NCBI GenBank assembly: GCA_004294135.1
Contig: RDZY01000016.1
Location: 18,036 to 82,035, forward strand
DNA: 64,000 bases
Source: Sphingobacteriia bacterium
Lineage (GTDB): Bacteria > Bacteroidota > Bacteroidia > Chitinophagales > Chitinophagaceae
Direction: 5' to 3'
Each line of letters begins with the position of its first letter. Within the stretch, counting starts at the first letter, position 1. This document shows, piece by piece, positions 51,253-56,471 of the stretch. The position numbers were made by a program, and so were the translations under genes. Below the pieces are notes generated by a model that did not search any database, had not been told where the DNA came from, and worked only from the letters and a program-made list of their open reading frames with translations.

Positions 51253-54200
51253 TTAATTTTTTATAACACGTTTGGAAGTCCATACTTTACCATCATAAAT
51301 ACGAATAAAATAAATATCAGCAGGTAATTCAGCTATATTTATTTTAGATTTTTTGGTGCTGCCATTCAATCTATTCTTTTTCTTTATACTACCGAATTTA
51401 TCTGTTATTTCTATTTCCTTTATATCCGTTTTTATATCTATTGCCTCAATTTGTATGTCCCCTGTAGTAGGGTTGGGTGAAACTGAAAATCTGTGTCCAC
51501 CATTATCGGTACAATCAAAACTAGTGCATACTGGGTAGCTAGTACTACAGGCATTGGAGTACGTAACACATAAGTAAGCATTACTGTAAATATTCTTGAA
51601 AGTTTGCACACTTGTTGGGTCGTTTACTGTTTGAGTTCCAGAGGATGTTTCTATTGTCCAAGTAAAATTATTTGCTGCATAGCTATTATTGGCAAAGCCA
51701 ATAACCTCAGGACAATGAACAGTAATTGAAAGGCTAGGAGTTGGTGTGCCAACAACAACTGTTTTAGTGATAATTATATTTGAACCTGCACAGGCATTTC
51801 CAATTTTTGCACTTAATGTTACTACCCCGCTTGCTATCCCAATTCTTTGTAATATAACCTGATTGCCATTGGGTGAAAGTGTTACAATATTAGCTGGTGA
51901 GGCAGTCCAAGTTATATTAGTTGTAGTATTACAAATATCAATAGAATAATTTTCTGATGAACAATTGATTGCTGATCCATAAATAACTTTGTTGGTGAAT
52001 ACAGGTAAATTTGCAAGATCACATTTTGCTTCGTTTTCAAACCATTCTGAGCCTTGTTGCGAAACAGAAACGTGTTCTTCATTTGTTGCTGGTGCATACA
52101 CATAATCGAAGGGAGTTTTGCCACACAAATATTCATTTGACCAATTCAAGTATAAATTTTTATTGCTATTATTTACACCAAAACGTAAATCGGCCGCACT
52201 ATAACTTGGCATCATAGTAAAGTTGTTGATATTTTGCATGATATTGGGTCTGCCGCCCGTTAATAGATAAATCAGTTCGCCAGCTAAAAAAACACCATGT
52301 GTTTGAATATCATCAGTCACTCTATTCCCAATTAATCCGCCTGGGGCATTGTCTTGGGCACTATTTCCCCAAGCAGCTTGTGCATAAGTATTGGTATATC
52401 CTGGTGGTACCCAAAATAAAAGATTAAAAACTGCACTTAATGTCCACATTTCAGATACTTTATTACTACCACTATTTCTAGTGGTTCTAGCAACCCAACG
52501 GAAACGTTTACAAATATTATCACCACAAACCCCCAAAAGTCCGTTTCGTTTTAGTGAAATATCTAAAAGGTCTGTGTTTGTTCCTTGATAAGGATTTAAC
52601 ATTCCTGTGTTAGACCCATTAATTAGCGCTACTTTTCTGCACTGTACGGGGTATTCTCCTACGGCTGCTAGATTTTGAAGAAACTGAACCCTTAATGCAT
52701 CGGGTGCTGGAAATTCTGAATTAGCAGTTTGGTGATGCGCCAACATTTGTTTTGCAGCTAAGCCATTGTACAAACCCTCCCTTATTTCTTTTATTCCTTT
52801 TAATATGCCCCTTTTTGTAATATACTCAACATAGTTTTGAATACCTATAGGCACATTTGCTCCTTGGTGGCAACCATCGAATGAAATATAGGTTTTTACA
52901 TGGTGGGCTAGGCTATTATGCTCCATATATGCCAATGCATATTGTGCTATTAAAGAACCCATGCTTGGCCCAATAAGTGTAATATCTTGCGTAAATGTTG
53001 ATCCATATGTTTGGTAAAGCCTTTGTAATAAGGTAACCAAAGTCATAGCATTGCGCTCTAATAAATCGTTGCCGTGTTTAAAATCTAAAATCACTAAATC
53101 ATAGCCTTCTTGTAGCATATAGTCGCCAAACTTTACTCCTACATTATTTCGATCTACTGGTTTATTAATAAAATCCGCATAAATTTTTTGTACCCCCCTC
53201 GAATTATCGGGGTCAAAACCATCAATAAATACAATGGGTTTGCGCAGTACGCCTGTATTACAGGAACTACCATTACCAGCAAAGAAAAAATAGGCCGTAT
53301 CTTTTACACCCTTGTAATCTATTGCTGGGTTGCCATATTGGGTATTTACAGTTGCAAGTGCGCCCGCATTGGCATCAATCACCCATTTTTGCCATCCCCC
53401 TTTACAAAAACTAAGGGGTGGGTATTCTATTTTAGGTTTAAAAAAAATTATAAAAGGATTACTGTATTGCACCAAATATCCTGCAAGGTCAATACCTATT
53501 ACTAGAATTCTTCCTCTAAGCGTTTTACCTATTAGTTTTGTAATACTATTAAGGAAACTATTTACACTTCCACTTTGTGTATTTTGCATCAAGTTATTTG
53601 AGAAGGGGTTATCAATTACCCATTCAGCTTCACCATCTCCAAAATCAATTCTTATCTGTTGCACATTTAAATATTTATTGCGCAGAAAAAACTGTTCATC
53701 AATGTAAAAACTATGTTCTCCTTCTTCTAAAACCTGATTTTCTGATTTTAGTGGACTTGCCATAAATGAAGTGTAAGTAAAATAAGGAGTTCTTGACCTG
53801 CCAGATACATCATTAAATTGACCATTTTGACTAGTATCTAAAAGGTTATCATCCAATGCCGTAGTATCTATCATATTATAGTCGTACAAGAATATCCCTA
53901 TTGGGTGTTGCCTATTATTGCCTTTGCTTTCAATTTGCGCGTCTATTTGTTCTGGTGCAAGCCACCCGCTTGTATTATAGCTTGCTTGATACATTTCAAA
54001 ATACGCTTGGGCAAAATGCATGGGACTAGCCGTATCCGTACTATTTGCAGATGCAATATGATTGTTTAATTGGGCAATAGGAAAAACCCTATCATATAAT
54101 ACACTTGTATTAATGTAGGATTTATTTAAGTTTTGAAACTTAAAGTCTGCATAGTCTCTAAAAGGCAGGTTTTCCCATATACTTTGGGCTTGTCCACTTT

Positions 54201-54264
54201 TACTAGCTGTGAAAATAAGTAATAAGATGGCAAATCTATAAATGCCGTTTAAACTCGGTTTCAT
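51253..54264 (-). CDS. T9SS type A-sorted secreted alpha/beta-hydrolase (lipase/esterase-like)
   Basis: Signal peptide; [16 protein letters not shown] elbow, FDGCHQGAN; Ig-like segments; C-terminal SPNPT...[10 protein letters not shown]...KRVIKN sorting domain. Confidence 0.85.
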
Positions 54265-54286
54265 GGGAGTTGGGTTTTAGTTTTAA

Positions 54287-54699
54287 TTAATTAGTGGTAT
54301 ATTTTAATCTAAATTTTCCATCGCTAACAACTACTTTTTTTTGTTGAACTAAATTGTATGCAGTAAATGAGAAATTACCTTCTATAATTTTATTTCGAGT
54401 GGAGAATTATCATAAATTGCTTTGTTTCTAGTATAATTTAGCAAATAGGATTTGGACATAATAGGATTTTCGTAGGTCCATATGGCCACAGATTCATAGC
54501 CCTTATTAGCACCAAGTATAAAAATGCTATCTTTATAAATAGTACAGGTAAGGCAGTTTGCACAGTTATTTGGTTTGTATTCTTGCCCATCAATTTTACA
54601 CTTATAATAAAATTCTGGTAGCCTTTCTTTTTTACAGGCTATTAGTATTAATGCAATACAAATAATGGATAGTACTAATTTTAGTTGAGTTGATTTCAT
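54287..54699 (-). pseudogene. Lipoprotein paralog 3, frameshifted by an internal deletion
   Basis: LIAC lipobox. Reads in frame to ...DNSPL, then joins the shared 3' cassette (54287-54395) out of frame; 67 nt shorter than paralog 1 at this junction. Confidence 0.8.
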
Positions 54700-54711
54700 A
54701 TGAATATTGTA

Positions 54712-55137
54712 TTAATTAATAGTATATTTTAATCTAAATTTTCCATCGCTAACAACTACTTTTTTTTGTTGAACTAAATTGTATGCAGTAAATGAGAAAT
54801 TACCTTCTATAATTTTATTTTATATATCATTTACAAGCGGAGAATTATCGTAATCTGCACTGTTTCTTGTATTATTAAGTTTGAACGATTTGGACGTGAA
54901 AGGATTTTCATACGCTCCTATACCCACAGATTCATAGCCCTTATTTCCGAAAACAATGAAGATTGAATCCGATAACAATCTTGCTACTTTGCAATTTGTA
55001 CAGTTGCTAGGAATATATGTTTCCCCATTAATTTTACACCTAAAATAAAATTCTGGTAGCCTTTCTTTTTTACAGGCTATTAGTATTAATGCAATACAAA
55101 TAATGGATAGTACTAATTTTAGTTGAGTTGATTTCAT
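54712..55137 (-). pseudogene. Lipoprotein paralog 2, junction-created TAA
   Basis: Reads ...NDI*NKIIEGNFSFTAY...RLKYTIN*. It is 54 nt shorter than paralog 1, in frame, with TAA at 54820-54822. Confidence 0.8.
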
Positions 55138-55149
55138 AAAATTATTGTA

Positions 55150-55644
55150 TTAATTAGTGGTATATTTTAACCTAAATTTTCCATCGCTAACAACTACTTT
55201 TTTTTGTTGAACTAAATTGTATGCAGTAAATGAGAAATTACCTTCTATAATTTTATTTACCCTATCTAGGGCTATTATATTTAGTGTTCCAGTATATGTT
55301 GAATCGGTTTTGTATATATCATTTACCAGTGAAGAATTATCATAACCAGCTTGCTTTCCAATTATGTTATTTAGTATGTAATTTTTGACACTAATAGCAC
55401 TTCTATCATTAATGCCGATGTTTACCGATTCATATCCTCTATTTGCCCCAAGTAAAAAAATAGTATCTCTGTAAATAGTACAAGTAAGGCAATTTGCACA
55501 GTTATTTGGTTTGTATTCTTGCCCATCAATTTTACACTTGTAATAAAAATCTGGTAGCTTTTGCTTATTGCATCCTATTGTTAGCATAATAGTGCTTACA
55601 ATAGCTATATATAAGAATCGAGGAAAAATGGTATATAGTTTCAA
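55150..55644 (-). CDS. Lipoprotein paralog 1 (intact; DUF6252-like beta-rich domain)
   Basis: TIGC lipobox followed by NKQK; C-terminal NKIIEGNFSFTAY...VSDGKFRLKY; TTG start. Confidence 0.78.
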   Translation of the reverse strand: MKLYTIFPRFLYIAIVSTIMLTIGCNKQKLPDFYYKCKIDGQEYKPNNCANCLTCTIYRDTIFLLGANRGYESVNIGINDRSAISVKNYILNNIIGKQAGYDNSSLVNDIYKTDSTYTGTLNIIALDRVNKIIEGNFSFTAYNLVQQKKVVVSDGKFRLKYTTN

Positions 55645-55907: not shown

Positions 55908-56471
55908 TTATTTTCTTTGTATTAGAAAAAAAGAAATTCCTGCATAAACCCCTATACCAAATACGCTACTAAAGTTTGCTTGATTGGTATTAAAGAGGGG
56001 GCCAAATTTTTGAGTTGTATTGGAATAATATCCAATATCAGTTTGAAAGAAAGCGTGCAAATTACCTGCTATTTTAGGTTGCACGCCTGTAGACAAGCCA
56101 ATAAAACTGCTATTTATTGGAGCATTACTTAAAGAGAATTTCCCTATATCGGCTGTTAGGGATAGATATTCGTTCCAGTTATCTTTCAGTAAAATACTGG
56201 AATACCATCTCAACTCTGTCCGAATACTTTTACCAGTCAACGGCAGTCCATTTATATTGCTATTAGTGGAGCCAATATTCATAAATAAACTAACTATATC
56301 TTTCTGGTCGGGTTTCTCTTTTTTTGCAAAAAAATATTCGCCTCCTATATTATATTTTCCAGAAAAATTTTCGATTGAAGTATTCAAAGCAAATCCGCCA
56401 CCCTTGATGTTTTGAGCAAAAAGGTTGCTACCTAGGGAAGTAAAAAAAATAAAAATGGATATTTTTATCAT
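55908..56471 (-). CDS. Hypothetical exported protein, small beta-barrel-like
   Basis: Signal peptide ending LFAQ; alternating beta-strand pattern; aromatic C-terminal strand GIGVYAGISF. Confidence 0.6.
   Translation of the reverse strand: MIKISIFIFFTSLGSNLFAQNIKGGGFALNTSIENFSGKYNIGGEYFFAKKEKPDQKDIVSLFMNIGSTNSNINGLPLTGKSIRTELRWYSSILLKDNWNEYLSLTADIGKFSLSNAPINSSFIGLSTGVQPKIAGNLHAFFQTDIGYYSNTTQKFGPLFNTNQANFSSVFGIGVYAGISFFLIQRK

Follow-up and report, generated by a model that had tools for sequence, protein, structure and literature searches.

Concerted evolution by gene conversion or unequal crossing-over is familiar from bacteria, for example in the duplicated tuf genes and in the rRNA operons, and silent-cassette antigenic variation is known from Neisseria pilE/pilS, Borrelia vlsE/vls, and Treponema tprK. 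Homology-facilitated illegitimate recombination has been found in Acinetobacter and Streptococcus pneumoniae during natural transformation, where it typically involves 3–10 nucleotides (nt) of microhomology. In type VI secretion, Tle lipase effectors are accompanied by tandem Tli lipoprotein immunity genes. The locus compared with these systems here is a mosaic array of three DUF6252 lipoprotein genes in a 64,000-nt stretch of a Sphingobacteriia bacterium of the Chitinophagaceae (GenBank assembly GCA_004294135.1, contig RDZY01000016.1, positions 18,036–82,035 of the forward strand), which is called the window and whose own numbering is used throughout. With moderate confidence, the locus is read as an operon-like array of three old tandem paralogs whose ends were homogenised by recombination, and in which copies 2 and 3 have recently lost their function through real deletions at the edge of the homology.

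Mosaic of the tandem lipoprotein genes

The array consisted of three co-oriented DUF6252 lipoprotein genes in tandem on the minus strand, which were separated by spacers of 11–12 nt and followed by a gene for a protein of 1003 amino acids (aa). The three copies, with their open reading frames (ORFs), were as follows:

55150–55644, minus strand: copy 1, an intact DUF6252 lipoprotein gene of 164 aa with a TTG start and its lipobox Cys at residue 25
54711–55137, minus strand: copy 2, a paralog with a 54-nt internal gap; its ORF (55137–54820) encodes 105 aa and ends at a TAA created at the junction
54286–54699, minus strand: copy 3, a paralog with an internal gap of 67 nt and a shifted frame; its ORF (54699–54382) encodes 105 aa

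The first-pass annotation of this DNA had reported a 3′ cassette differing by 1–3 nt among the three copies, an identical 94-nt 5′ cassette in copies 2 and 3, a segment of copy 3 that matches copy 1 better than copy 2, and gaps of 54 and 67 nt with a common right end, one of which creates a TAA and the other a frameshift. All of these features could be recovered. The 3′ cassette measured 110 nt with 97–99% identity, and copies 2 and 3 were 100% identical over the first 94 nt from the ATG. Since the preceding 3′ cassette and the 11-nt spacer ran into the 5′ cassette without a break, the true repeat is a block of approximately 214 nt occurring twice, plus a third 3′ cassette alone. The elements of the mosaic were distributed as follows:

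55149–55258, minus strand: 3′ cassette T1, the final 35 codons and the stop of copy 1
54711–54820, minus strand: 3′ cassette T2, bounded upstream by the deletion junction of copy 2 (54820/54821)
54286–54395, minus strand: 3′ cassette T3, bounded upstream by the deletion junction of copy 3 (54395/54396), the exact position at which contig RDZS01000220.1 of a sister assembly begins
55044–55148, minus strand: spacer and 5′ cassette of copy 2, with the signal peptide, the lipobox, and KKERLPEFY; contiguous with T1 in a block of approximately 214 nt
54606–54710, minus strand: spacer and 5′ cassette of copy 3, with 94 coding nt identical to copy 2; contiguous with T2
54535–54633, minus strand: segment of copy 3 resembling copy 1, codons 23–55 after the lipobox Cys, containing YKCKIDGQEYKPNNCANCLTCTIY

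Over codons 23–55, the nucleotide identity of copy 3 was 91% to copy 1 and 71% to copy 2. Copy 3 is therefore a mosaic, with a 5′ end as in copy 2, an N-terminal segment like that of copy 1, a middle like that of copy 2, and the common 3′ cassette. The longest identical runs were 87–100 nt, while the maximum among 20,000 shuffles of the differences was 44–73 nt; as the observed runs exceeded those of all shuffles, the mosaic is more than a product of chance.

In the middles of the genes, synonymous divergence (dS) was approximately 1.6–1.7 between copies 1 and 3 and between copies 2 and 3, and was too high to be estimated between copies 1 and 2. The ratio of nonsynonymous to synonymous divergence (dN/dS) in the two pairs where it could be estimated was 0.14–0.22, indicating purifying selection. 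The signal-peptide cassette of copies 2 and 3 showed zero differences, the 3′ cassette had a dS of 0.05–0.10, and the tract common to copies 1 and 3 had a dS of 0.36, which suggests an older conversion event. The old and constrained middles indicate that the copies are old and were functional for most of their history, and that only their ends were homogenised, repeatedly.

Phylogenetic trees gave different answers for the two parts of the genes. In the tree of the middles, copy 1 was nearest to L011, a single-copy gene of another organism (81% identity; path 0.22), with paths of 0.68 to copy 3 and 1.07 to copy 2, and copies 2 and 3 formed a long-branched sister pair. In the tree of the ends, the three window copies formed one tight clade with a support of 97 in the Shimodaira–Hasegawa-like approximate likelihood ratio test (SH-aLRT). 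Both marks of concerted evolution were present, as the trees conflicted by segment and dS was 0 to 0.10 in the cassettes against approximately 1.6–1.7 in the middles.

Species-representative genomes were scanned and database relatives looked up, which provided 21 loci for comparison (numbered with the prefix L), all from Chitinophagales or unclassified Bacteroidota metagenome-assembled genomes. A U-shaped identity profile, with near-identical signal peptides and C-termini around divergent middles, was found in L018, L023/L032, and L030, and more weakly in L025. Copies 2 and 3 of L018 were 97–100% identical at both ends and 37–50% identical in the centre, and the L025_p3 copy grouped with L023_p3 and L030_p2 in the tree of the middles. 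The edges of the homogenised blocks differed between lineages, which argues that there is no conserved recombination site. Because of the dS contrast between ends and middles, the discordant trees, and the same pattern in the arrays of other genomes, gene conversion or an equivalent recombination between tandem copies is a well-supported explanation of the mosaic as judged from sequence comparison, and in this respect the origin proposed in the first-pass annotation was borne out.

Most copies in the other arrays were intact. Disrupted copies were found in L034 (a stop and a frameshift), L036 (a frameshift), and L033 (a lost stop). In L034 (5001–5961; Agriterribacter sp. bin636), the breaks of the two tandem copies lay within approximately 10 codons and fell in the segment that copies 2 and 3 of the window lack; in copy 1 of that locus, a TAA stood between TGKL and ITSLDK, and copy 2 had a small indel after FRTD. 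The same genome carried an intact copy together with the homolog of the downstream gene on a separate contig (L029). In L033 (4944–5963), a single 340-aa open frame joined two tandem lipoprotein genes, the first of which had lost its usual C-terminal end together with the stop.

Probable deletions at the edge of the 3′ cassette

Compared with copy 1, copy 2 lacked 54 nt and copy 3 lacked 67 nt, and both gaps stopped immediately before AAATAAAATTATAGAAGG. This common right end was the left edge of the homogenised 3′ block. The copy 2 junction read GAT ATA TAA, the last triplet being the new stop, and the 3′ cassette beyond it was still intact and in frame. The copy 3 junction caused a frameshift whose product ended in PLEIKL; its gap fits equally well a loss of 66 nt in frame between two GTAAAT repeats, combined with the loss of 1 nt. 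At the level of nucleotides, copy 2 joined GATATATA to AAATAAAATT with 0 nt of microhomology when compared with its full-length counterpart (L015, below), and copy 3 joined CCACTCG to AAATAAAATT.

That counterpart was present in the 99.95%-identical sister assembly GCA_004295185.1, which carried the locus on two contigs, RDZS01000240.1 (L015) and RDZS01000220.1 (L016). L015 differed from the window by 1 single-nucleotide polymorphism (SNP) in approximately 3.77 kb, and its copy 2 retained the 54 nt in frame (…NDIYKTDSIHIGTLNITALDRVNKIIEGNFSF); the contig terminated 31 nt into the 3′ cassette, and the copy 2 frame was open through the gap region up to the contig end. L016 showed 3 SNPs in 6.1 kb, and its first base lay exactly at AAATAAAATTATAGAAGG, the end point of both gaps. 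A contig from sequencing run SRR7244338 matched window positions 54326–50995 without a difference. Over the 9.9 kb of the sister assembly, the window thus showed 4 SNPs and no indel except the copy 2 gap, and copy 1 was identical in both assemblies. The 54-nt segment was specific to copy 2, being 84% identical to the corresponding segment of copy 1, and a genome search did not find it anywhere else in the window genome. With copy 2 full length in the sister assembly and no second source of the 54 nt in the genome, the full-length form would be ancestral and the window allele a very recent and irreversible loss. A shared deletion that was later extended, which the first-pass annotation had listed as an alternative, is ruled out by the copy 2 of the sister assembly, which is full length across the gap. 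These truncations call for caution in annotation, since a near-identical assembly shows the gene uninterrupted over the gap region.

The missing residues (approximately 111–129) spanned a beta-strand at 119–127 with an invariant G119 and near-invariant L121, I123, and D127; in both copy 2 and copy 3, the deletion takes out a core beta-strand. Based on the structural model of copy 1, even an in-frame deletion of these residues would probably destroy the fold. Exact-protein searches for copies 2 and 3, and for the partial products to be expected on k=31 Logan contigs, gave no match; such contigs would measure only some 220–280 nt and have probably not been kept in the collection. Among these look-ups and those of relatives, no full-length copy 3 was revealed, and a 28-mer specific to copy 3 gave 0 matches in the metagenome contigs of the Joint Genome Institute (JGI).

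We infer that the two deletions exist as real molecules, and the following mechanism and order are proposed for them. Repeated gene conversion or unequal exchange within the array would keep the 3′ cassette, the spacer, and the next signal-peptide cassette near-identical while the middles stay divergent. A recombination event may begin inside the perfectly homologous block and run out of homology at its left edge, where an illegitimate join in the divergent upstream DNA could resolve the intermediate and leave deletions that vary in their left end and have one base as their common right end. The first loss was probably that of copy 3, after which copies 2 and 3 would be homologous only from exactly that base; this order would account for the same end point in the later deletion of copy 2.

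Two other routes were considered and rejected. A hairpin-mediated deletion was set aside, as the segment of the full-length copy 2 folded no better than shuffled sequences (z = +1.2). A mobile element was suggested by an inverted 10-mer that seemed to flank the ~214-nt block on both sides (AAATAAAATT and AATTTTATTT). The match was perfect for copy 2 only and consisted of A and T only, and was taken as a coincidence; the 10-mer overlapped the conserved NKII and PEFY codons, and 7 matches were seen against 2.8 expected, a number reached by 3 of 100 shuffles.

The lipoproteins and the downstream hydrolase gene

Copy 1 belonged to the Pfam family DUF6252 (PF19765) with a score of 34.8 bits against a gathering cutoff of 27.2, and the same domain was present in most of 70 database relatives. 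The 105-aa ORFs of copies 2 and 3 scored below the threshold, yet could be aligned over their full length. The homologs of copy 1 used in the alignment were 157–170 aa long. All three copies had a signal peptide and a lipobox as expected of bacterial lipoproteins, with MKLYTIFPRFLYIAIVSTIMLTIG before the Cys in copy 1 and MKSTQLKLVLSIICIALILIA before the Cys in copies 2 and 3; these calls were made from the sequence, without a dedicated predictor. The lipobox Cys was invariant across 59 aligned relatives. An AlphaFold model of copy 1, for which these 59 relatives served as the alignment, predicted an all-beta domain with a predicted local distance difference test score (pLDDT) of 89. A Foldseek search of this model against the PDB gave a single weak match, the Mycobacterium tuberculosis lipoprotein LpqH (E-value 5e-3, template modelling score (TM) 0.36–0.55). 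In a literature search, DUF6252 was mentioned in no paper.

For copy 1, the database annotates a protein of 145 aa that begins at Met20, only five residues ahead of the lipobox Cys (window 55588–55644). The TTG at 55644 is the likelier start, as it would give a normal signal peptide. Several relatives carried K-(D/E)2 directly after the lipobox Cys (CNKED, CNKEE, CKKED), which resembles the surface-lipoprotein export signal of Bacteroidota; the corresponding residues in the window copies were CNKQK and CKKER. At 55908–56471, immediately upstream of the array and in the same orientation, a gene for a 187-aa protein had a signal peptide and no Pfam match.

Downstream of the array, the following gene was located:

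51253–54264, minus strand: a 1003-aa serine-hydrolase-like cargo of the type IX secretion system (T9SS), with a PGAP1-like alpha/beta-hydrolase region (GPSMG motif) and a C-terminal Por_Secre_tail domain

Its assignment as a T9SS cargo was indicated by the Por_Secre_tail domain (PF18962) at residues 929–1001 with 36.1 bits against a cutoff of 27, and the PGAP1 profile matched with an E-value of 2.8e-4. The protein had no sequence match in the PDB. One to three tandem copies of the lipoprotein gene lay directly upstream of a cargo homolog in 13 of the 21 loci; this pairing, seen in the window at 51253–55644, was present in L012, L018, L023, L025–L032, L035, and L036. Among 24 other species of the window genus, the lipoprotein gene was absent in all 24, and the cargo gene had a match in one, limited to the C-terminal quarter. 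This distribution suggests that the pair behaves as an accessory module, possibly one acquired horizontally.

In view of the conserved adjacency of the genes, a copy number that varies, a divergent centre, and frequent decay, the lipoprotein probably acts as a partner to the T9SS hydrolase, for instance an inhibitor, an immunity-like protein, or a chaperone. The tight coupling of the family to a T9SS-secreted hydrolase offers a first functional handle on DUF6252.

Fragments of the 5′ end of the cargo gene were duplicated between lipoprotein copies in L018 (518–754) and L028 (1125–1382), which indicates that the duplication unit can include the start of the cargo gene. The cargo gene was internally deleted or degraded in L012 (970–1472) and L026 (5527–5679), and was degraded also in L036. 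In the window genome, contig C10 (29969–31484) encoded a second alpha/beta-hydrolase, distantly paralogous to the cargo with 31% identity across residues 334–485 (E-value 7e-11), and a very weak DUF6252-like match was found in the same region (E-value 0.12).

Alternative explanations and comparison with described systems

Several points weigh against deletions formed at the edge of homology. The two deletions are known from one assembly only, and no full-length copy 3 could be found anywhere that was searched. Slippage and homology-facilitated illegitimate recombination do not usually leave a junction without microhomology, as seen in copy 2. Copy 1 and the full-length copy 2 are homologous for another 10 nt to the left of the common end, so that the edge-of-homology argument needs copy 3 to have lost its segment first. 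Two deletions ending at one base also look like what is expected of an assembly error at the edge of a repeat, and the exact repeat between copies 2 and 3 (T2 and T3) measured 99 nt, which equals the contig overlap of the assembler. In an assembly artefact, which the first-pass annotation had also listed as an alternative, all three copies would really be full length, and one or both deletions would have been made by threading contigs through the collapsed 3′ repeat. Such an error would account for the near-identical assembly in which copy 2 is full length across the gap on a contig that ends 31 nt into the repeat, for the other sister contig which begins on the exact base where both gaps end, for the agreement between the 99-nt repeat and the contig-end overlap, and for the blunt copy 2 junction. 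Nevertheless, we hold it to be unlikely. The window genome assembly contained no Ns and had six pairs of contig ends overlapping by exactly 99 nt, which points to a plain de Bruijn assembly in which the k-mers of the junctions should come from reads. An assembler of this kind outputs only k-mers from reads or earlier contigs, no route to a loss of 54 or 67 nt could be found, and the error to be expected, a merged bubble of copies 1 and 2, would give a chimera of equal length. The copy 2 gap aside, the window agreed with the 9.9 kb of sister sequence without any indel and with only 4 SNPs. Moreover, the end of L015 and the start of L016 lay on one shared 31-mer, which means that the sister data set has a base other than T, the base of copies 1 and 2, before AAATAAAATT; the copy 3 junction, with its G, supplies the predecessor needed. 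Disrupted copies in other arrays (L034, L036, and L033) likewise speak for real lesions.

Programmed variation, in which copy 1 would be the expression site, copies 2 and 3 silent donors, and the cassette edge a hot-spot that moves middles into the expressed gene, was the function put forward in the first-pass annotation. Conserved ends with variable middles, the segment common to copies 1 and 3 at 91% identity, a locus that differs between two assemblies of 99.95% identity, and two breaks at one edge are in keeping with it. Silent donors would be expected to lack a start, a signal sequence, or a promoter, whereas copies 2 and 3 each had their own ATG, signal peptide, and lipobox, lay 11–12 nt behind the preceding gene like ordinary operon members, and had middles under long-term purifying selection. 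A genome search revealed the three copies of the lipoprotein gene and none beyond the array, which leaves only two possible donors. The full-length copy 2 of the sister strain, the only change between the strains being the deletion, and the identity of copy 1 in both assemblies stand against switching; the deletion destroys unique sequence and is irreversible from within the genome. The tract common to copies 1 and 3 is not recent (dS 0.36), the block edges vary between lineages, the conserved module includes no recombinase or reverse-transcriptase gene, and the arrays of other genomes consisted mostly of 2–3 intact genes. Silent copies that can be recombined into an expressed gene are accordingly very improbable here. 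A diversity-generating retroelement was also rejected, as the differences between the middles were not limited to adenines and the conserved module contained no reverse transcriptase. Cassette-switching surface variation in a Chitinophagales bacterium would have been notable, and the evidence is against it; the locus is a case of ordinary gene-family turnover and not of programmed surface-protein switching, and it provides a further instance, from an uncharacterised family, of a known process. Adaptive pruning would instead take the lipoproteins to neutralise variants of the hydrolase, with copies that are no longer needed being lost and with truncations that are either selected or neutral decay unrelated to the block edge. 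The conserved pairing with the hydrolase gene, the copy number of 1–3 with cargo fragments duplicated alongside (L018, L028) and degraded cargo genes (L012, L026, L036), and the absence of the module from congeners are compatible with this. We consider it quite improbable, as it leaves the identical right end unexplained, the fold search gave only the weak LpqH match (E-value 5e-3, TM 0.36–0.55), and no T9SS cargo of this type is known to need an immunity protein; a literature search on T9SS and immunity returned nothing relevant. As a more speculative extension, which we regard as a long shot, the edge of the homogenised 3′ block may be a recombination-linked deletion hot-spot that drives a fast birth-and-death of an immunity-like array partnering a T9SS lipase-like enzyme. 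The idea of an elevated rate comes from the one 54-nt change against 4 SNPs in 9.9 kb. If it were true, paralogs would be switched off far above the background rate, type IX secretion would gain its first effector/immunity-style module, and the same process would lie behind the stop at residue ~122 and the frameshift at ~116 that cluster in this segment in the unrelated array L034.

Compared with the described systems, the deletions resemble those of homology-facilitated illegitimate recombination, in which one end likewise lies at the edge of a perfect-homology anchor and the other in non-homologous DNA, with the deletion beside the anchor. Here, however, the event would have taken place within one genome and between paralogs, and the copy 2 junction had none of the 3–10 nt of microhomology. 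Silent-cassette systems likewise show conserved flanks, a variable centre, and segmental copying between tandem copies. The array differs from them in that each copy had a start codon, a signal peptide, and a lipobox, only three copies were present, copy 2 of the sister was full length across the gap, and the deletion was irreversible. As in Tle/Tli modules, the gene for a secreted GxSxG hydrolase stands beside one to three small tandem lipoprotein genes which diverge fast and often decay. In contrast to Tle, the hydrolase carries a T9SS C-terminal sorting domain and has no association with a type VI secretion system; the lipoproteins have no sequence similarity or clear fold similarity to Tli, and the likeness to an effector–immunity module rests on the adjacency in 13 of 21 loci. 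The general concerted evolution of tandem paralogs likewise produces near-identical blocks in one genome despite the age of the copies, discordant trees by segment, and identical tracts much longer than expected from the overall divergence. Unlike in the general case, homogenisation here reaches only the gene ends, the spacer, and the next signal peptide, while the middle stays divergent, and this could be seen in several lineages. The array is a clean case of concerted evolution which is limited to gene ends and recurs across lineages in the uncharacterised DUF6252 family.

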